Positions 5,532-51,882 of a stretch of 64,000 nucleotides of DNA are shown piece by piece. Each line of letters starts with the position of its first letter. Positions within the stretch are counted from its first letter, which is position 1. This DNA comes from a virus (taxonomy: Duplodnaviria > Heunggongvirae > Uroviricota > Caudoviricetes), in the IMG/VR virus record IMGVR_UViG_3300033121_001869, positions 45,076-109,075 of that record; one strand, written 5' to 3'. The notes under the pieces are model-generated. The model did not search any database. It was not told the origin of the DNA and worked only from the letters and a program-made list of their open reading frames with translations. Made by a program: the position numbers and the translations under genes.

Positions 5532-6259
5532 TAGTAATCAAGTCCTGGATTTAATCCGAATTCGACAGTATTGATTATTCTTTCTCCTCTACCACTTGCG
5601 CCAGTATATGACTGTTTATAATCTCTATAAATTTTATATTTAGAAACCTCATTACCACTAAAGGTGCTATATGACCAAGTTATTTCTGTATTCAATTCAA
5701 CTCCAAATACTTTTAAGGTTTGAAAGTCCTTTATTAATTGGTCTTTATATTTATCTAACTCTTCTTTATTTTTGAATTCAAAATTTAATCTATGACTACT
5801 ACCAAAAGATGTATAAATATCAACTGAATTAGGTAGATTCAAAATTTTTCTCAATTTAGAATAATCAAACTTAATTCCATGTTTTGTTTCTTTATAAAAA
5901 TCACCTTCTTTTGATTTGCCTGGAGTGAAATGCAAAACAAATTCATAATCCGAATTACTAACTGAAAAATCACAATCTATATCATAATCAATATCATATA
6001 TTTTGTCAATTCTTTCAACAGATTCTTTTATCTCCTTTAAAAGACTCATTTCTTCCTCTTTGTGTGAGAGGAAAGACTCAAAATCTGAAGAATATGATAT
6101 ATTAATCTTTGACCATATAATAACTTCCTCACCACCATCATGAATCTCTATAAATACCCTCTCATCATCTATTAAATGACTAAATGAATCCTTAATAGCA
6201 TTGACAAAATCCTCTTGTCCAAAATTCTCAAATAATTTAATTCTCATATTACTTTTCAC
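5528..6259 (-). CDS. hypothetical protein, N-terminal tag (probable start 6247, MRIKLFENF)
   Basis: 243-aa ORF. Confidence 0.65.
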   Translation of the reverse strand: MKSNMRIKLFENFGQEDFVNAIKDSFSHLIDDERVFIEIHDGGEEVIIWSKINISYSSDFESFLSHKEEEMSLLKEIKESVERIDKIYDIDYDIDCDFSVSNSDYEFVLHFTPGKSKEGDFYKETKHGIKFDYSKLRKILNLPNSVDIYTSFGSSHRLNFEFKNKEELDKYKDQLIKDFQTLKVFGVELNTEITWSYSTFSGNEVSKYKIYRDYKQSYTGASGRGERIINTVEFGLNPGLDYY

Positions 6260-6710
6260 CGGAAAATGGAGAGATTAAGTGTTTTGTATTCCAACCAGAT
6301 ATAAATTTCTTATTATGCTTATCAAAATCTTCTCTAGTCTCGATATTAGAATCAATTACATTTTTATCAAAATGTATGTTAGCTCCTTGTTTTTTAAGAT
6401 TCGGTATTCTATCTCCTATATCTACTCCTTTTGTTTTCTTTCTTAATTGTCTTAATTGTCTTAAATTGTGATCACTTGGAAGAGATTCCTCAATTATTGC
6501 TGGTTCAGTGTGTGTATATCCACTAATATCATTTCTCTTGGATAATGTGTATAATATCTGTCTAATTGTTGCCTTAGTTAAATCACACTCCAATGCTAAC
6601 TGACCGATTTCAGTCATACCTTCATCCCAAAGTTCTTTTACAATTTCCATATCGGACATTGTAAAATCTTCATACTCATACATTTCATTAAATCTTAGTA
6701 TTCTAACCAT
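6249..6710 (-). CDS. hypothetical protein, N-terminal tag, possible HTH
   Basis: MVRILRFNE; TAATATATA at 6715-6723. Confidence 0.65.
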   Translation of the reverse strand: MVRILRFNEMYEYEDFTMSDMEIVKELWDEGMTEIGQLALECDLTKATIRQILYTLSKRNDISGYTHTEPAIIEESLPSDHNLRQLRQLRKKTKGVDIGDRIPNLKKQGANIHFDKNVIDSNIETREDFDKHNKKFISGWNTKHLISPFSGEK

Positions 6711-29219: not shown

Positions 29220-30482
29220 TTAATTATCATCATCATTTTCATCAGGCTCTTGAAAAAATAAACTAGGATCTCTTCGTTTAAGAAATTCTCTAGCTATTAT
29301 TAATTTACAAGTGTTGTCCTTAACCCAATTTTTAGCCAACTCATATGGATCAACTCCCTTTTCCATTTGCATAACATATCCAAAATTCGGTTCTTTTTTA
29401 TAGTATTTTATAGCATAGGATTTTCTATCTCGACCCATTTGTAAAAAAACATCGTATGATTTTTTCAATTCCTGTACCTTCTTATCTAATGTTTCTCTAA
29501 TAATATGTATTATTTTATTAATACGATTATGCGCATCAACTTCATCTTCTGGTATTTGTCCTAATATATCATCAATTTTATCTTCTAAAATATACTTAAT
29601 AATTATATGCTCACGATATATATCATTTGTTAGTAATCCATGTCTTTCACAATACCATGGTGTTTTTATTTTAAAAAAGAAATCTTTTCCAACACTATCG
29701 ACCGCCTGTACAATAACTCCCTCTTTGTCTACCTGTTTAGCAATAACTTCAATTAAAGTATCAAGATCCATCATATCATCCTCAAACGGAGCCATTCTAA
29801 TGGTATCAATCTTATCTAGATGATCTTTCATATCAATATGCTTTCCGGTGATTGAATCCCTCATTCTCAAAAGTATTAAATCCTCCTTAAGATATTTTAA
29901 AACAATTCTATTAGAAGGTGATACATACTCAAATATTGGTATTATATTATTCTCAATACACCAATTAACAAAATTGTAAATATCTTCTCTTGTTTTATAA
30001 ATTCGATTTATACCATTAGCTTGTTCATTATCAAATCCCATTTTTGATTTTCCAATTATTCTACCATTTGGTAATTGTATAAAAGAAGCTATTGATCCAT
30101 CCTCTTTATTATTAATAAATTTTATTTTGTAATCTTTAACGACAGAATACATTGTCTCAGGAACTTGATTTATATTAAAAAATTTCTCAAGTAAAATAAA
30201 TCTTTTGAATAATGTCCCGTCTGTATTAAACACAAAGGTTAATCCTCTCATTTCATAGGCTTTAACATCTGGCCTATTTTCAATAGGAGTTACAAAATCT
30301 TTATATTGTGCTAATCGATAATTAAATACAGATATATTAAATCCATCAATGATAAATTTCGACTCATAAAAGGCAGAATCATCTCTAGAACACATCTCAA
30401 CACAATCCTCATAGGTTGGTATAAAGTGACTTCCGTCTGTTTTACTTTCTTTTATAAAGTCTTTGTATTTAAATAATCTCAC
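29220..30482 (-). CDS. rnlA: T4 Rnl1-like RNA ligase
   Basis: KEDGS motif I, EMRGLTF, LEKFFNIN, FEYVSP.NRIV, EGVIV, FKIKTPWY. Confidence 0.9.
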   Translation of the reverse strand: MRLFKYKDFIKESKTDGSHFIPTYEDCVEMCSRDDSAFYESKFIIDGFNISVFNYRLAQYKDFVTPIENRPDVKAYEMRGLTFVFNTDGTLFKRFILLEKFFNINQVPETMYSVVKDYKIKFINNKEDGSIASFIQLPNGRIIGKSKMGFDNEQANGINRIYKTREDIYNFVNWCIENNIIPIFEYVSPSNRIVLKYLKEDLILLRMRDSITGKHIDMKDHLDKIDTIRMAPFEDDMMDLDTLIEVIAKQVDKEGVIVQAVDSVGKDFFFKIKTPWYCERHGLLTNDIYREHIIIKYILEDKIDDILGQIPEDEVDAHNRINKIIHIIRETLDKKVQELKKSYDVFLQMGRDRKSYAIKYYKKEPNFGYVMQMEKGVDPYELAKNWVKDNTCKLIIAREFLKRRDPSLFFQEPDENDDDN

Positions 30483-41794: not shown

Positions 41795-42475
41795 ATGAAA
41801 ATGAAATGGATTAAAAAATTCGAAGCTAAAAGAAAAGTGCAAAATCTACATAAAGTTGATGACGCATCTAAAAAAACAGAATATCTTGAAAAGTGTCAAG
41901 ATATTGATGAAATGTCATACATATCCTTTGATAGTTTTTATAAATCTTTGGATTTCGATATTTTCTCTAAACATGATTATAATAAATTCTATTCTTCAGG
42001 AATTGCAATTCACCATGATGTTAAATCAGCAACATATGGTCAAATTGATGGTGTTTATATTTCAAGCTCTGAATATGGAAGAAGTGATCACTATCTTAAA
42101 GATCTTGTAGAATGGCAAAAAAGAAACGCATTTTTATTTGCTGAAGTAAATACGGGTGGGGCATCAGGAGGAAGTTGCTGGGATGGAATGCCTGGATATG
42201 AAGATAGTGGACCAAGAGAATACTATGGAAGTTCATTAGATCTTCATGAATTTATTTATAGTTATCTAAAGCCAATATTTGATTCAATATTAAATAATTA
42301 TGCGAATGATAAAAGTTCTACTGAGTTATGTGACATATTGTATAATAATCCAAACATTATAAAAGAAGATGATAGAAGCAATTATGAATATTATGGCAAT
42401 TATGATAATTATTCAGCATACTATATAACATTGGGTGACTTATTTGAATTCCTATTAAAAAATGGTTCTTTTTAA
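41795..42475 (+). CDS. hypothetical protein, N-terminal tag
   Basis: MKWIKKFE; TGGASGGSCWD motif. Confidence 0.7.
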   Translation: MKMKWIKKFEAKRKVQNLHKVDDASKKTEYLEKCQDIDEMSYISFDSFYKSLDFDIFSKHDYNKFYSSGIAIHHDVKSATYGQIDGVYISSSEYGRSDHYLKDLVEWQKRNAFLFAEVNTGGASGGSCWDGMPGYEDSGPREYYGSSLDLHEFIYSYLKPIFDSILNNYANDKSSTELCDILYNNPNIIKEDDRSNYEYYGNYDNYSAYYITLGDLFEFLLKNGSF

Positions 42476-42891
42476 TGTCGAATATATTATTCATAGTTGG
42501 TCTACCTGGATCTGGAAAAACCAGATTAGCAAAATCTATTAATCAAGATAGCAATTTGAAATATAAAATTATTGATGATCCAAAAAACTTTGCTACCGAT
42601 ATCGAACCATATCTAAAAGAAGATCTAATAATAACAGATCCTAATCTTTGTTTTGAATCAAATAGAATTAAAGCTGTAAATAAGATTCATAGTATAGATA
42701 ATACTATTAAAATAGATTGGATTTTTTTTGAAAATGATCCGAAAAATTGTCTAATCAATTCAGATGTTAGAAACAGAGTTAATAGAATATCATTTAAGCC
42801 TGTAAAAAAGGTAGATTCATTTATTAAAAATCTAAGCCAATATTATACAATACCAAAAGATTCAAATATTGTATCTGTATATCAAGGCTAA
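42475..42891 (+). CDS. P-loop kinase-like protein
   Basis: FIVGLPGSGKT Walker A. Confidence 0.7.
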   Translation: MSNILFIVGLPGSGKTRLAKSINQDSNLKYKIIDDPKNFATDIEPYLKEDLIITDPNLCFESNRIKAVNKIHSIDNTIKIDWIFFENDPKNCLINSDVRNRVNRISFKPVKKVDSFIKNLSQYYTIPKDSNIVSVYQG

Positions 42892-43613
42892 TCAGATACA
42901 AATACCTTAAATTTATTATCACCAGCCGATAAAATTCGGTGATATCCATCTATAATTTTATACTTATTTCCAAATTTTCTAACAACACCTCTTGGTAAAG
43001 TATATTTATCATCATAAAAAATATAATTGTTATATTTTAATGGTAAAGATTTTTCAATATTTGAAATATGATTTTTATTCAATGCACTAAAATCAATATC
43101 TGATTTATCTATTTCAATTAAATTAAACTCAGAATTGGATATATCATCTAATAAATATCCATATTCTATTGATAAAACATATTTTATTTTATCAGATAAA
43201 TTATCAAATGATAATACTTTCTCACACAATTCAATAATTAAATTAAATGTAATCTTATCCAAATAAACATCACCAATCTCATCACCATAATATCCACCCA
43301 CAACGCTTATATTCCAGGTATCTGAATGGTATAATTTATATTTTGTAATAATTCTATTAATACAATAAATATCAATTTGTTCACCACCATAGAAAATGGT
43401 ATCAATTTTTAAATTTCTTTTTCCAGACTTTGTTCTAGGATGCATTAATTCATCATAGATATGCTCTGACATTCTCATAATATCGACATGTGTGACACGT
43501 GCATCATAAATTTGACCGCATCGGCATATCCCCTCAGATACACACCCAGAGTCAGAACAACTATAATCTGTTTCATAGTCATACAGAACAATATCATTAA
43601 ATCGATTTTCCAA
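42888..43613 (-). CDS. hypothetical protein with C-terminal ParB/Srx-like motif
   Basis: IIDGYHRI. Confidence 0.6.
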   Translation of the reverse strand: MENRFNDIVLYDYETDYSCSDSGCVSEGICRCGQIYDARVTHVDIMRMSEHIYDELMHPRTKSGKRNLKIDTIFYGGEQIDIYCINRIITKYKLYHSDTWNISVVGGYYGDEIGDVYLDKITFNLIIELCEKVLSFDNLSDKIKYVLSIEYGYLLDDISNSEFNLIEIDKSDIDFSALNKNHISNIEKSLPLKYNNYIFYDDKYTLPRGVVRKFGNKYKIIDGYHRILSAGDNKFKVFVSD

Positions 43614-43959
43614 GATTTCTTTTAACTCTTGTTTTACAAAATTGGGTATTGTTAACTTGTTTTAAAAAATATACCCTATTACTTTTTAATTCATTTAAGG
43701 CTCTTATTAGTAATTTTCCATTCAAATCTCCCCAAGGAATTGGAAGAACTTTATCCTTATAATAAAAATTACCTCTACCAAATCTATTTATTCTATCAGT
43801 TGAATTTGGGATTGGTTCTATTGGTGTATCAAAAAATAAATAGGAATTGGCTGGAACATCACAAATTTTCCTTTTTTCGTTATAAACTCTAAAAACCTCT
43901 TCTATCAAATGTTTCTTGATAAAGTTACTTTTTGTATTATTATTTTTCACAACTACCAT
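43597..43959 (-). CDS. hypothetical protein
   Basis: 120-aa ORF. Confidence 0.6.
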   Translation of the reverse strand: MVVVKNNNTKSNFIKKHLIEEVFRVYNEKRKICDVPANSYLFFDTPIEPIPNSTDRINRFGRGNFYYKDKVLPIPWGDLNGKLLIRALNELKSNRVYFLKQVNNTQFCKTRVKRNLGKSI

Positions 43960-43975
43960 TTTAATTTTAAAAATT

Positions 43976-44186
43976 ATAAAAAGAGAGAGTAACCAGCCTT
44001 CTGCTTTATCGTGTAATTTGTCTATTGTCCTCTACCTCGATATCATCGCGTCGCTCACCCGCTAATCTGTTTTGAGTTTATCCCTCGGTGGTCAATCAAA
44101 CTTTCAGTTTCCCTACTAATTCTCCCACCTTAAGCGAAGGATGGCTGAGTTTTCTCACCGTAGTGCTACACGTCCTCTCTTTTTAT
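43976..44186 (-). ncRNA. rnpB: compact RNase P RNA
   Basis: 12-bp P1 (ATAAAAAGAGAG/CTCTCTTTTTAT), P2 CGTGTAG/TTACACG, P3 CAC-TACG-GTG, P4 AACTCAGCC/GGCTGGTT with bulged U, GGATAAAC, GAGCGA, TAGACAAAT and GCAGAA conserved-region matches. Confidence 0.85.
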
Positions 44187-44398
44187 TTTATACATTCTGT
44201 AATTATAATATCTTTAACTCCATAAAAAACAGAATATTCACCATTTCTATTTTTTTCATTATAAAAGTTTATGACTTTATTCCTGGCGGATTCTAAATCA
44301 CTCGCCATAACTATATGTAATTTGGTTTCATTCTTCCTACCATTATCCATATAGTATGTTTTATAATACTCAACTTGTGCCAAAAACAATAATTCCAT
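44183..44398 (-). CDS. small hypothetical protein
   Basis: 71-aa ORF ending at the RNase P RNA 5' end. Confidence 0.55.
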   Translation of the reverse strand: MELLFLAQVEYYKTYYMDNGRKNETKLHIVMASDLESARNKVINFYNEKNRNGEYSVFYGVKDIIITECIK

Positions 44399-44799
44399 TA
44401 TTTTATAAATTTATTATTAACAAATCCTCTATGAAAATATCTATAATCACTTATATCAACACCATCAATCACTTTAATATAGTGTAAAATTAACCCTATA
44501 ATATTTTGACGACCATTTGTATTATCAGTATGTACATACCAATCGGGAAATTTTTTTCCCAGTGTTAAACACTTATTGATAACATATTCACACGCCGTTT
44601 TACCAGTAAATTCACCATTTTCACGAAAACACGCCAAATCATGATCGAATGATATAAGTTCAATTTTATCTAAATGATTATCAATGATTTCATAAAAATC
44701 AACATCATTTCGTACAATAGTAAAATCCAAATTCCCCAAACCCTTATTTTCATTATGGCTCTGGTCAATTCGTCTTAAATCATCTAAAAATACTCTCAT
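44398..44799 (-). CDS. cyclic-phosphate-processing receiver-like domain protein (start MRVFLDDLR; track start 44988 is too long)
   Basis: FLDDLR, ISFDHDL, TGK, HTDN..G motifs. Confidence 0.7.
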   Translation of the reverse strand: MRVFLDDLRRIDQSHNENKGLGNLDFTIVRNDVDFYEIIDNHLDKIELISFDHDLACFRENGEFTGKTACEYVINKCLTLGKKFPDWYVHTDNTNGRQNIIGLILHYIKVIDGVDISDYRYFHRGFVNNKFIK

Positions 44800-44845: not shown

Positions 44846-45568
44846 GTGAAAAATGTTAAAAAATATAGAGATTTCTGTAATGAAGAAATAAACCTAAAAA
44901 ATGCACTTATAGGTGGGGCAATAGCCGCATCCACAATTGGTTGTGATTCAACAGAATTAAATAAGAGACAAGGCAGTGAATGGATCACAACACCAACTCC
45001 AATTGAAAGCGCAACCGAAATAAAAGAACTACCAAATAAATTTGAGATGGATGAAGTTATAATGACAATAGGAACAGATATGAATATTAATGTTGGTGAC
45101 CAACAAGTAGGAAAAGTTGAAGAAAGAACGCTAAATTGGGGTAAAACATTTGAATACTTTGATAATAAAGGTCACAAAATAGCAACAGGAAAAGAAAAAG
45201 CACTGAGTTTATTAACTACAATAGATATCTATGACAGTAATGATAAAAAAATAGGAACATTTGAAGAAGAATTATTTAAAAATTTCTTCTCTATAAAAAC
45301 ATATTATTCAATAAAAGATGCCTCAGGCAAATTAATTGCAGAATCAGAAAAACTGGATTGGTTATCAACTAATATAGAAATATTCTCACCGAGTGGTGAA
45401 ATTCTATGTAAAATGAAAAGACCGGCATTTAACTTACTAAGTGATAGTTGGAAAGTGGAGGTACTTGGAAATATTGATAAACGTCTAATAGTTTTCATAC
45501 CTTGTTATAAAACATCAGCCGATAATGAAAGGAAAAGTGAGGATGATAAAAATAACAATGAAGACTAA
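44846..45568 (+). CDS. LURP-one/scramblase-like protein with N-terminal tag and lipobox-like segment
   Basis: MKNVKKYRDFCNEE-INLKNALIGGAIAASTIG-C; repeated beta-hairpin units; DKRLIVFI. Confidence 0.65.
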   Translation: MKNVKKYRDFCNEEINLKNALIGGAIAASTIGCDSTELNKRQGSEWITTPTPIESATEIKELPNKFEMDEVIMTIGTDMNINVGDQQVGKVEERTLNWGKTFEYFDNKGHKIATGKEKALSLLTTIDIYDSNDKKIGTFEEELFKNFFSIKTYYSIKDASGKLIAESEKLDWLSTNIEIFSPSGEILCKMKRPAFNLLSDSWKVEVLGNIDKRLIVFIPCYKTSADNERKSEDDKNNNED

Positions 45569-50121: not shown

Positions 50122-50196
50122 ATATATTTTTTATTTTTATATATTAAAATGTCTAACTTCTATACCCATTTAGATTCGGATGTTTTACCAATTTTG

Positions 50197-50270
50197 CTAC
50201 CATGGGTGGATTCGAACCAAACCATTATGAGGGTCAAAACCTCATGTCCTGCCAGTTAGACGACATGGTA
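50197..50270 (-). tRNA. tRNA-Gln(TTG)
   Basis: TACCATG acceptor, loop TTTTGAC, GGTTCGAATCC; no encoded CCA. Confidence 0.88.
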
Positions 50271-50276
50271 AATTTG

Positions 50277-50350
50277 ATGTCCTGTTTGGAATTGAACCAA
50301 AATTTTCACTTTCAAAGAGTGATGTAATAAAACCATTATACCACAGGACA
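50277..50350 (-). tRNA. tRNA-Gln(TTG)
   Basis: TGTCCTG acceptor, TCACT-CTTTGAA-AGTGA, TTCAATT T-loop. Confidence 0.85.
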
Positions 50351-50356
50351 ATTTAG

Positions 50357-50428
50357 TTATTGTGTCAAGATTCGAACTTGAATTGCCAACTTCAAAGGAA
50401 GGAGTGTTAGCCATTACACTACACAATA
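50357..50428 (-). tRNA. tRNA-Gln(TTG), two mismatches in the anticodon stem
   Basis: TATTGTG acceptor, CCTTC-CTTTGAA-GTTGG, TCAAG-TTCGAAT-CTTGA. Confidence 0.7.
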
Positions 50429-50430
50429 AT

Positions 50431-50460
50431 AAAAAAACCCAGTCAAGATTGACTGGGTTT
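50431..50460 (-). terminator. attenuator terminator 1
   Basis: AAACCCAGTCA-ATCT-TGACTGGGTTT plus TTTT on minus strand. Confidence 0.9.
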
Positions 50461-50483
50461 AATACTATATTTTTAGCAATAGA

Positions 50484-50540
50484 TTACCTGTCAACCTCTC
50501 GGATGTTATTTTGCTGCTGTTGCTGAGTAATCATTTTCAT
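50484..50540 (-). CDS. Gln-sensing leader peptide MKMITQQQQQNNIREVDR
   Basis: five consecutive Gln codons (CAG CAA CAG CAG CAA); 3' end carries the antiterminator AGGTTGACAGG. Confidence 0.85.
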   Translation of the reverse strand: MKMITQQQQQNNIREVDR

Positions 50541-50611
50541 AAACTTTCTATTTTATCTTTTAATTTTTTAACTGTTGAGAATATCTTTCCAAAATATTCT
50601 GCTCTTTCAAG

Positions 50612-50684
50612 TAGGGTATGCCAGACTCGAACTGACGATCTCATGGTCCCAAACCATGTGCGTTACCAACTACGCTAATACCCT
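50612..50684 (-). tRNA. tRNA-Pro(TGG)
   Basis: AGGGTAT acceptor, CATGG-TTTGGGA-CCATG, TTCGAGT. Confidence 0.9.
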
Positions 50685-50685
50685 A

Positions 50686-50757
50686 TATATGATGCTAATT
50701 CGAACCCACAAACCAAGGCCTCAAAAGCCCTGCTCTACCAATCGAGCTCATCACATC
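50686..50757 (-). pseudogene. degenerate tRNA (anticodon TTG), T-stem unpaired
   Basis: GCTC/GAGC D-arm, AGGGC-TTTTGAG-GCCTT, TTCGAAT with mismatched stem. Confidence 0.55.
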
Positions 50758-50764
50758 AATTTTG

Positions 50765-50835
50765 CGGTCCCTCCCGGAATCGAACACGGGATCACCACCC
50801 ACACTGGTGGTACTCTACCCTTAAGCTAAGTGACC
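50765..50835 (-). pseudogene. degenerate tRNA with non-canonical 6/8-nt anticodon loop
   Basis: GGTCACT/AGGGACC acceptor, CCACC-AGTGTG-GGTGG, TTCGATT. Confidence 0.55.
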
Positions 50836-50894
50836 ATATCCAATTCTATATTTTACCCATTAAACCGGTCTATGAATTGGTAACATTCTCCTTG

Positions 50895-50966
50895 CGGTCC
50901 ATACGGGACTTGAACCCGTTCCTCCAAGTTGACAGCCTGGAAGCTTAACCCATCGCCTAATGGACC
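50895..50966 (-). tRNA. tRNA-Asp(GTC)
   Basis: GGTCCAT acceptor, CCAGG-CTGTCAA-CTTGG, G73. Confidence 0.85.
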
Positions 50967-50971
50967 AGTTG

Positions 50972-51046
50972 CGGACATGAAGGGATTCGAACCCTCGATC
51001 TCGCTCCGTGACAAGGAGGTATGTTTGACCTCTACACCACATGTCC
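50972..51046 (-). tRNA. tRNA-Asp(GTC)
   Basis: GGACATG acceptor, loop TTGTCAC, GGGTTCGAATCCC, G73. Confidence 0.88.
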
Positions 51047-51092
51047 GTTCTGAGAGTTCCTTTTCCTCCACGGAAAGTCACTCACAACCTTG

Positions 51093-51177
51093 CAGTAACG
51101 ACGGGAATTGAACCCGCTACAATATATTCCAATCACAGGGCGACAACCTGCTGCACCAACCATTATGCGCCGCTACT
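51093..51177 (-). tRNA. tRNA-Asp(GTC) with a 17-nt variable region
   Basis: AGTAGCG/CGTTACT acceptor, GCAGG-TTGTCGC-CCTGT, GCGGG-TTCAATT-CCCGT. Confidence 0.7.
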
Positions 51178-51744
51178 ATTTTTAATAAAATTATTTCTAT
51201 AATCAATAACTTTATCAATAATTTCGTGTCTATATTTACTATGTAAATAATTATGATGTGTTGCACAAAGTGGTATTAAATTCTCTGGGTTATTGTTAAA
51301 TTTATTACCATCAAAATGATGAACATCTAATAATTTACTCTCCTCACACACAATACATAAATGCTTATGATTTTGAAAACAAATTTCTCTATATTTTATA
51401 GAATATCGACTTTTTCTTTTATCATATTCATCTATGCTTTTCCAATTTCCGTTGTTTTTACCACTTCTAAACAATGTATTCGAACAAGATATTGAACACG
51501 TTGCTCTTTCTCTTTTACCACCATTAAAAGTTTCAAAATTTTTTTTACAAATTGGACATTCCTTTTCTATTTTTTCATATTTTATTTTTTTACTTTTTCC
51601 ATTGTCAAAATGATCTGTATTTAAATTAAAATCATTTATAATTTTTTTAGCCTTTGAATATCCAACACCATTTATCGGGAGATTTATAATTTTACAAAAA
51701 TCTGAAAGACTATAACAGATATTGATAATTTCATTATAATTCAT
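51163..51744 (-). CDS. HNH endonuclease inside the tRNA cluster
   Basis: CIVCEE..LLDVHHFDGN..NN.PENLIPLCATHH. Confidence 0.88.
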   Translation of the reverse strand: MNYNEIINICYSLSDFCKIINLPINGVGYSKAKKIINDFNLNTDHFDNGKSKKIKYEKIEKECPICKKNFETFNGGKRERATCSISCSNTLFRSGKNNGNWKSIDEYDKRKSRYSIKYREICFQNHKHLCIVCEESKLLDVHHFDGNKFNNNPENLIPLCATHHNYLHSKYRHEIIDKVIDYRNNFIKNSSGA

Positions 51745-51807
51745 AAAACATTTTAATTTTATATATTTAAATGTCTTACTCCCGCTATTTGGGTCAAACT
51801 TATGTTG

Positions 51808-51882
51808 TCTGAAAAGTAGGATTTGAACCTACGATCTCTTACTTCCAGGGTAAGCGAGGACTCCGAGCTCCTCCATTTTCAG
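51808..51882 (-). tRNA. tRNA-Pro(TGG) with C33
   Basis: CTGAAAA acceptor, CTTAC-CCTGGAA-GTAAG, GTAGG-TTCAAAT-CCTAC. Confidence 0.82.

Follow-up and report, generated by a model that had tools for sequence, protein, structure and literature searches.

A phage-encoded RNA with the features of a miniature RNase P RNA and its relatives in other phages

Background

Can a large phage carry an RNase P RNA gene of its own, and if so, what would it be for? The question is raised by 211 nt of GC-rich intergenic DNA in the window, by which we mean the whole stretch of 64,000 nt that was analysed (positions 45,076 to 109,075 of IMG/VR record IMGVR_UViG_3300033121_001869). A reading made by a model without database searches, hereafter the sequence-only reading, had proposed that positions 43976-44186 encode, on the minus strand, a stripped-down RNase P RNA that matures the phage tRNAs, presumably with the host protein RnpA. 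The usual view of RNase P is that of a housekeeping enzyme of the cell, which phages borrow. If there were a conserved viral gene for its catalytic RNA, tRNA 5' processing would join the translation-related functions that large phages bring along. No description of a phage-encoded RNase P RNA was found in the open-access literature that we searched, which included a 2024 RNase P review, the P Finder survey, and the papers on huge phages, theta ribozymes, type T RNAs (2026) and the DLP6 genome; subscription-only papers were not covered.

Results

The locus and its genomic setting

The phage record is linear (IMG/VR), 182,437 bp long with 27.7% GC, and is estimated to be 79% complete. Its phage nature was confirmed by PHROG matches to phage families, and the matches in the record include a T4 Rnl1-like RNA ligase, an HNH endonuclease and a peptidase. 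The record has 26 tRNA genes in three clusters, and near-identical DNA is present in wastewater and activated-sludge runs from ten studies.

The whole RNA gene, about 207-211 nt, occupies 43976-44186 on the minus strand, as delimited by a match to Rfam model RF00373, by our own model R1 and by an island of raised GC content: 0.425 in 44000-44199 against 0.21-0.30 in the flanks, in a record of about 28% GC. In the ORF list it sits between two ORFs of the same strand. The upstream one, of 71 aa (44183-44398; phrog_11654, E 2e-10), has a stop codon overlapping the first bases of helix P1. The downstream one (43597-43959), whose start is separated from the RNA end by a gap of 17 nt, encodes a basic protein of 120 aa and unknown fold that is syntenic in relatives by tblastn (alignment A6). 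Also downstream, on the minus strand, is the gene for a 241-aa protein (42888-43613), likewise syntenic; the two genes directly follow the RNA in five relatives (L217, L153, L211, L139 and L165). Directly upstream is a minus-strand gene with a cREC_REC ("cyclic-phosphate processing receiver") domain (44398-44799; PF20274, 57 bits), and it too is syntenic in several relatives.

Genes of RNA-repair type were observed near the putative ribozyme: that for the cREC_REC protein, that for the Rnl1-like RNA ligase (29220-30482, minus strand; phrog_562, 194 bits), and that for a small P-loop kinase with weak similarity to polynucleotide kinase (42475-42891, plus strand).

The 120-aa neighbour was considered as a possible RNase P protein subunit. 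No Pfam or PHROG family was found for it, and a large protein collection held only three homologues. Its AlphaFold model (mean pLDDT 77.5) has the fold order alpha-beta3-alpha-beta2; a Foldseek search of the PDB with this model gave nothing at E ≤ 0.001, and the best Z in a wide VIA structure search was 4.7. The subunit role is thus unsupported by family, homologue and structure searches, and we reach no verdict on it. The protein is confined to the sub-group of the window, and the RNA family is much wider.

Matches to RNase P models

At gathering level, Rfam gave no RNase P match in the window, only tRNAs. In a permissive scan, the archaeal RNase P model RF00373 aligned with 43978-44184 over model positions 1-288 (E 1.7e-8), scoring 35.3 bits against the 84 needed; the alignment deletes about 117 model positions at the specificity domain, where the phage RNA has only a stub of 33 nt. 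RF00373, and not the archaeal type T model RF02357, is the best match of the window copy within clan CL00002. In minimum-energy folding of the single strand, none of 200 shuffles reached the same stability (z -3.29). R1, a covariance model built on the window RNA and four relatives, for which the structure was drawn by hand, recognized 43972-44187 with 217 bits.

The boundaries proposed in the sequence-only reading are upheld by the Rfam and R1 matches. That reading had also named the lack of any covariance-model hit as grounds for its refutation, and with the RF00373 match, below gathering score as it is, this refutation is not met. The E-value of that match, together with the covariation of all helices in 54 relatives described below, is more than chance would give, and we consider it close to certain that the RNA is a homologue of RNase P RNA.

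Anatomy of the RNA

All elements lie on the minus strand and are described from the 5' end. The 5' strand of P1, AUAAAAAGAGAGG (44174-44186), makes 13 pairs with 43976-43988 in the fold and covaries in 54 sequences. P2 joins CGUGUA (44167-44172) to UACACG (44010-44015); it is 98.4% paired, and all six of its pairs have changed on both sides. P3 is reduced, according to fold and covariation alignment, to CAC-UACG-GUG (44156-44165), three pairs with a UACG cap, and has five additional pairs in relatives. J3/4 (AGAA) and the 5' strand of P4, AACuCAGCC, occupy 44143-44155 with U 44148 bulged and represent the CR-I equivalent, by P4 covariation and by conservation. P4 as a whole, AACuCAGCC/GGCUGGUU, was left outside the model; across the 54 sequences it is 97.4% paired, with compensatory change in six of eight pairs. 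P5 (AUCC, 44139-44142, with GGAU, 44080-44083) is 98.6% paired, and each of its four pairs is compensatory.

The second pseudoknot, P6, is formed by UCGCUU in J5/7 (44132-44137) and GAGCGA in the loop of P17 (44051-44056). It too was outside the model, and is 93.2% paired with four of six pairs compensatory; variants across the family include UUGCUU/GAGCAA, CUUCUU/GAGAAG, CAGCUU/GAGCUG and CUUCGC/GCGAAG. Bacterial class-A RNase P RNAs are marked by just such a P6, in which the P17 loop takes part. This pseudoknot had been missed in the sequence-only reading, and its assignment of GAGCGA as one of the conserved RNase P segments failed: GAGCGA is really the 3' strand of P6, pairing with UCGCUU (44137-44132).

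P7 (GGUGG/CCACC, 44087-44129), which covaries, encloses the 33-nt stub in place of the whole specificity domain. P8-P14, CR-II, CR-III and the T-loop binding site are absent, as there are just 33 nt inside P7. The stub is mostly about 20-30 nt in relatives, with inserts of about 90 nt in some (L111, L038). Most relatives in our alignment of 54 distinct sequences (A5) have in the stub GGAG(A), a short hairpin and then GUU-NNN-AC. Its conserved U and A, five bases apart, could form one T-loop-like element of the sort that has been modelled in type T RNAs. In this region (44092-44124) the hairpin of the window copy is longer, and the copy aligns poorly there with its relatives.

Positions 44030-44079 hold J5/15 (AAA), P15 (CUC/GAG), P16 (GAU/AUC), P17 (GCG/CGC) and, between P15 and P16, an internal loop with GGUA directly 5' of the P15 3' strand (GGU at 44034-44036), supported by covariation or by conservation. 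Every pair of P16 and P17 is compensatory in the 54 sequences, and P15 is invariant. J15/2 (44016-44029) contains UAGACAAAU, the CR-IV equivalent, which aligns to the Rfam consensus uAGucGAAU and to the corresponding segment of a Collierbacteria RNA. There is no P18, the link from the P15 3' strand to the P2 3' strand being 14 nt without a hairpin. The last core segment, 43991-44009, comprises J2/4 with AUAAAGCAGAA, the CR-V equivalent, in which CAGAA is conserved, and the covarying P4 3' strand GGCUGGUU. The equivalents of CR-I, CR-IV and CR-V (GAGAAAACUC, UAGACAAAU and GCAGAA) align to the Rfam consensus and are at least 80-95% conserved in the family.

The phage RNA keeps a complete catalytic domain: P1-P5, P7, P15-P17, the P4 and P6 pseudoknots, the bulged U, the GGU loop, the CR-IV strand and a J3/4 and J2/4 that are rich in A. 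The GGU loop of class-A RNAs pairs with the 3'-CCA of the tRNA; the same pairing in the phage RNA is an inference, and the tRNA genes of the window encode no CCA.

Covariation and conservation

In A5, 94.6% of the cells form standard pairs; sliding the 3' partners by 1-3 columns lowers this share to 33-45%. Changes on both sides are seen in 43 of 51 pairs. Since A5 was fitted to R1, it is biased towards the nested helices; the P4 and P6 pseudoknots are outside R1 and provide an independent test. On their own they are 95.8% paired, against 20-47% in the slid controls, and 10 of their 14 pairs are compensatory.

Conservation reaches at least 95% at 41 positions, and these coincide with known core motifs. 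They comprise GAG-AA of J3/4; the bulged U of P4 and the C next to it; UAGA-AAU of CR-IV (UAGAnAAAU); CAGAA of CR-V; AACUCAAA, covering J5/15, P15 and the start of the internal loop; and GGUAGAGG, with the GGU of the P15/P16 loop and the P15 3' strand.

Fold, GC content and covariation bear out what the sequence-only reading had described, a GC-enriched island whose minus strand forms P1, P2, a 3-bp P3 capped by UACG and a P4 with a bulged U. Its broader claim, a stripped-down RNase P RNA encoded by a phage, is supported as regards homology to RNase P RNA, on account of the full-length covariance-model match, the reciprocal match with a Collierbacteria RNA given below, the covariation of the helices including P4 and P6, and the near-invariance of the core motifs.

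Relatives in phages and in cells

To find candidate loci, viral, metagenome and genome collections were searched for patterns built on conserved single-stranded motifs, and the hits were then screened with R1. Most loci from loose patterns (L007, L008, L011, L012 and nearly all of L013-L126) were chance matches and were sorted out by this screen. About 70 further true copies remained, on viral and metagenome contigs from many habitats, together with the copies in LR756502.1 and phage DLP6. The copies score 57-240 bits with R1 and measure about 180-356 nt. Each genome has a single copy, and the phage contigs that carry them reach 270 kb and 642 kb.

The only homologue that blastn retrieved with the window RNA as query lies in LR756502.1, an uncultured phage of 642 kb, and matches RF00373 with 32.4 bits; two other homologues (L009, L111) match this model as well. 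In the phage collection, the window RNA and two relatives as queries retrieved LR756502.1 only, and the DLP6 copy retrieved DLP6 only. In the huge-phage paper (Al-Shayeb et al. 2020), the study's own genomes above 634 kb were given predicted Bacteroidetes hosts; RNase P is not mentioned there.

A copy without annotation is present in the cultured Stenotrophomonas phage DLP6 (KU682439.2:105772-106024; L244:1501-1753). Its R1 score is 30.7 bits (E 4e-7); RF00010, its best Rfam model, gives 54.7 bits (E 2.7e-15). The copy lies between CDS AAY80_165 and tRNA-Arg-CCG, one base before the tRNA-Arg, inside a region of 30 tRNAs; no reduced RNase P RNA is reported in the DLP6 genome paper.

A copy of the phage type (163 bits) was also observed at 6027-6263 of CAYHBE010000019.1, a 10.7-kb contig binned as a Dehalococcoidales MAG; this is probably due to mis-binning of a phage contig or to a prophage.

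When cellular genomes were scanned with the patterns, two from Candidatus Collierbacteria gave hits on their genuine class-A RNase P RNAs, which have RF00010 scores of 93 and 90 bits. These RNAs share with the phage RNAs the strand GGUAGAGG...UAGAUAAAU...ACAGAA. R1 aligns with one of them from end to end (46.5 bits, E 1e-12) with P1, P2, P3, P5, P15 and P16 in register, and its specificity domain appears as a 118-nt insertion exactly at the phage stub. R1 gave no match with E. coli rnpB. The end-to-end alignment, with the specificity domain inserted at the stub, leads us to regard the phage RNAs as likely reduced descendants of a bacterial class-A RNase P RNA, a descent that is inferred from the sequence alignment and model matches.

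Two further observations concern the Collierbacteria RNAs themselves (L226:3714-4011 and L234:2723-3060). Both fall just under the RF00010 gathering score, with 93 and 90 bits against 100. The former has a short strand between the 3' strands of P15 and P2 that leaves no room for P18, and its 3' half is very like the phage RNAs.

tRNA genes around the RNA

Among the 54 loci, 22 contain tRNA genes, and in 22 of these 22 every tRNA is on the strand of the RNA. In most of these loci the RNA is inside the tRNA array; in five loci, as also in DLP6, it is within 0-4 nt of a tRNA. In two (L038, L081) the RNA is wedged between two tRNAs, and in another two (L078, L180) its 3' end touches the 5' end of a tRNA. 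Where the ends abut in this way, RNase P cleavage of the downstream tRNA would create the 3' end of the ribozyme.

The sub-group of the window differs in that the RNA is surrounded by protein genes; in the window, the nearest tRNA cluster (50196-51882, same strand) is 6 kb away. This cluster has nine genes with 5-6-nt spacers, and an encoded CCA is absent from all nine. It was also observed to contain three different tRNAs with a UUG anticodon and three with GUC, one of the latter being 86 nt long with a long extra arm. Neither RnpA (PF00825) nor a CCA-adding enzyme (PF01743) was found in the 182-kb record, which is estimated to be 79% complete, so that the absence of either is unproven.

Transcription signals and RNA libraries

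A scan for sigma-70 promoters and terminators over 43500-44700 gave nothing above shuffled sequence. The Bacteroidota-type TAnnTTTG box is absent upstream of the window copy and is not enriched across the window (112 found, 111.75 expected), so that it permits no host assignment for the window phage. Among the 54 relatives, 12 have this box (Bacteroidota -7 type) in the 50 nt upstream, at 13-37 nt before P1; the rate in background windows is 3.7% (p ~6e-7). Five have a hairpin-plus-U terminator downstream. Copies with such boxes and terminators thus seem to be transcription units in their own right, which the window copy does not. Upstream boxes or downstream terminators were noted at L134, L139, L165, L181, L136, L170, L153, L142 and others.

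Evidence from RNA libraries consists of contigs only, without a DNA run beside them. Two libraries from different studies each gave one short contig confined to the RNA, at 43991-44180 and 44000-44178; the latter derives from a relative in which 13 nt are inserted at 44156, exactly in P3. A contig of a third library (44017-44390) covers the 71-aa ORF and the 5' part of the RNA. As there is no DNA comparison, these contigs are no more than a weak hint that the RNA may be stable and perhaps co-transcribed. Run X1 has long contigs over the whole stretch and may contain DNA, and is thus uninformative on transcription; for X17-X19, uncovered parts are not evidence of absence.

In run X1, three contigs were seen to meet within 43984-44013, 30 nt at the 3' end of the RNA, and one of them runs into unlike sequence. 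A co-occurring strain seems to differ downstream of the ribozyme gene, and the gene end is possibly a mosaic breakpoint.

Discussion

Proposed function

Our main reading, to which we give a probability of roughly 0.7, is that the RNA is a reduced RNase P RNA of class-A descent that cleaves phage pre-tRNAs, probably with host RnpA. Both the catalysis and the use of RnpA are inferred. The RNA would be made during infection, in the window phage probably within a polycistronic transcript, and would fold and bind a small basic protein cofactor, most simply host RnpA. The resulting hybrid of phage RNA and host protein is the simplest model because no RnpA was found in the record. RnpA contacts the CR-IV and CR-V strands in class-A holoenzymes, as in the Thermotoga structure, and these strands are conserved in the phage RNAs. 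The enzyme would cut the 5' leaders from the precursors of the phage's 26 closely packed tRNAs. The gain may be extra tRNA-processing capacity, or relaxed substrate measuring, where the host supply is limiting or shut off. Maturation of the phage tRNAs and use of host RnpA had both been put forward in the sequence-only reading; they stay inferences, as the record has yielded no RnpA and the host is unidentified.

A ribozyme role has points against it: the RNA lacks the domain for measuring the tRNA elbow, and published C-domain constructs bind pre-tRNA more weakly (PMC11143913); the Rfam score is far below gathering level; the nearest tRNA is 6 kb away; promoter and terminator signals are missing at the window copy; and, although the GGU loop is kept, CCA is encoded by none of the nine tRNA genes in the window. 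In its favour are the 26 tRNA genes of the record, the RNA-repair genes nearby, the same-strand tRNA arrays of the relatives and the published activity of C-domains and of type T RNAs (PMC11143913, PMC7191817).

Alternative explanations

The RNA might be a decoy or sponge that titrates host RnpA or pre-tRNAs and so damps host tRNA maturation without catalysing. With no RnpA gene in the record, any protein partner must come from the host; furthermore, the RnpA-contact strands CR-IV and CR-V are conserved and the specificity domain needed for tight tRNA binding is missing, all of which a decoy would accommodate. However, conservation extends beyond the protein-binding patch, the best-conserved positions being catalytic ones (the bulged U of P4 and its neighbour, GAG-AA of J3/4, CAGAA and the GGU loop), and the location of the RNA within same-strand phage tRNA arrays, abutting tRNA 5' ends, fits the processing of the phage's own tRNAs better. 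We therefore think a decoy unlikely. An active ribozyme with another partner, for instance the 120-aa neighbour, or with another target, such as polycistronic mRNAs, tRNA-like elements or its own release from arrays, would account for the 120-aa and 241-aa genes kept beside the RNA in five relatives and for the position of the window copy inside a protein-coding operon away from tRNAs, and loss of the specificity domain should loosen the tRNA-elbow requirement (PMC11143913). Against this, the 120-aa protein occurs only in a sub-group of a far wider RNA family, and in most tRNA-containing loci the RNA sits within the tRNA array; this alternative, too, appears improbable.

The last possibility, a functionless RNA that is either the decaying remnant of a captured bacterial rnpB or a chance look-alike, can point to truncation relative to every cellular bacterial RNase P RNA and to scores below the Rfam thresholds. 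It is all but excluded: the covariation, with compensatory changes in every helix and in both pseudoknots, effectively refutes it, and there are about 70 copies on unrelated phage contigs from many habitats, one copy per genome, with near-invariant core motifs.

The main reading, a phage ribozyme that processes pre-tRNAs with a host protein, can be extended. In the bolder version, big phages carry a working, naturally minimised type A RNase P of about 200 nt without a specificity domain, which takes over or supplements the 5' maturation of their dense and partly atypical tRNAs, is self-released from the array in many phages, and would rank as the first RNase P from a virus and as the smallest natural one of bacterial type. 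We consider this version as likely to prove wrong as right.

Implications

Such genes escape annotation, since they fall under the Rfam gathering scores; the DLP6 copy is unannotated. The family bears on substrate recognition without measuring of the tRNA elbow and on compact RNase P-based tools for gene targeting. With lengths of about 180-350 nt, and with or without a remnant of the specificity domain, it constitutes a natural deletion series that shows evolution's minimal bacterial-type catalytic core. DLP6 and its host offer a culturable system for tests of function.

Comparison with known RNase P RNAs and other ribozymes

Theta (HDV-like) ribozymes resemble the phage RNA in being phage-encoded, in adjoining phage tRNA genes and in being tied to phage tRNA maturation (PMC10879173). 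They differ in that they are self-cleaving, target the 3' trailer and have an unrelated fold; in that study, 5' processing was assigned to cellular RNase P (PMC10879173).

Archaeal type T RNAs are closer in their architecture, being natural RNAs of about 200 nt that keep the catalytic domain and have almost wholly lost the specificity domain (PMC7191817, PMC13462272), and they are reported to be active (PMC7191817). They belong, however, to an archaeal lineage with Pop5, Rpp30 and L7Ae as partners, whereas the phage RNA has bacterial P6 and P15-P17. Because of these bacterial-type elements, and because RF02357 is not its best match, we do not assign the phage RNA to type T; we read the resemblance as convergent reduction and not membership. 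Engineered C-domain or mini-M1 constructs also consist of the catalytic domain alone, and bacterial C-domains without the specificity domain cleave pre-tRNA with and without protein, although they bind it more weakly (PMC11143913). These are laboratory deletions, whereas the phage RNAs are natural, conserved and covarying, with a small conserved stub inside P7.

With class A (RF00010; E. coli M1 RNA, rnpB), and above all with forms that lack P18, such as L226 of Candidatus Collierbacteria, the phage RNA shares P1-P5, P7 and P15-P17, the bulged U of P4, a P6 that links J5/7 to the P17 loop, a GGU in the P15/P16 loop and the CR-I, CR-IV and CR-V motifs. Unlike class A, it is encoded by a phage, has neither a specificity domain nor P18, has a P3 of only three pairs, and measures about 210 nt against about 290-400; the window copy, at 35 bits with the archaeal model as its best match, is below the curated score. 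As two defining features, the specificity domain and the curated score, are lacking, we do not file the RNA as a member of curated RF00010 and place it instead as a new structural variant inside the RNase P RNA clan.
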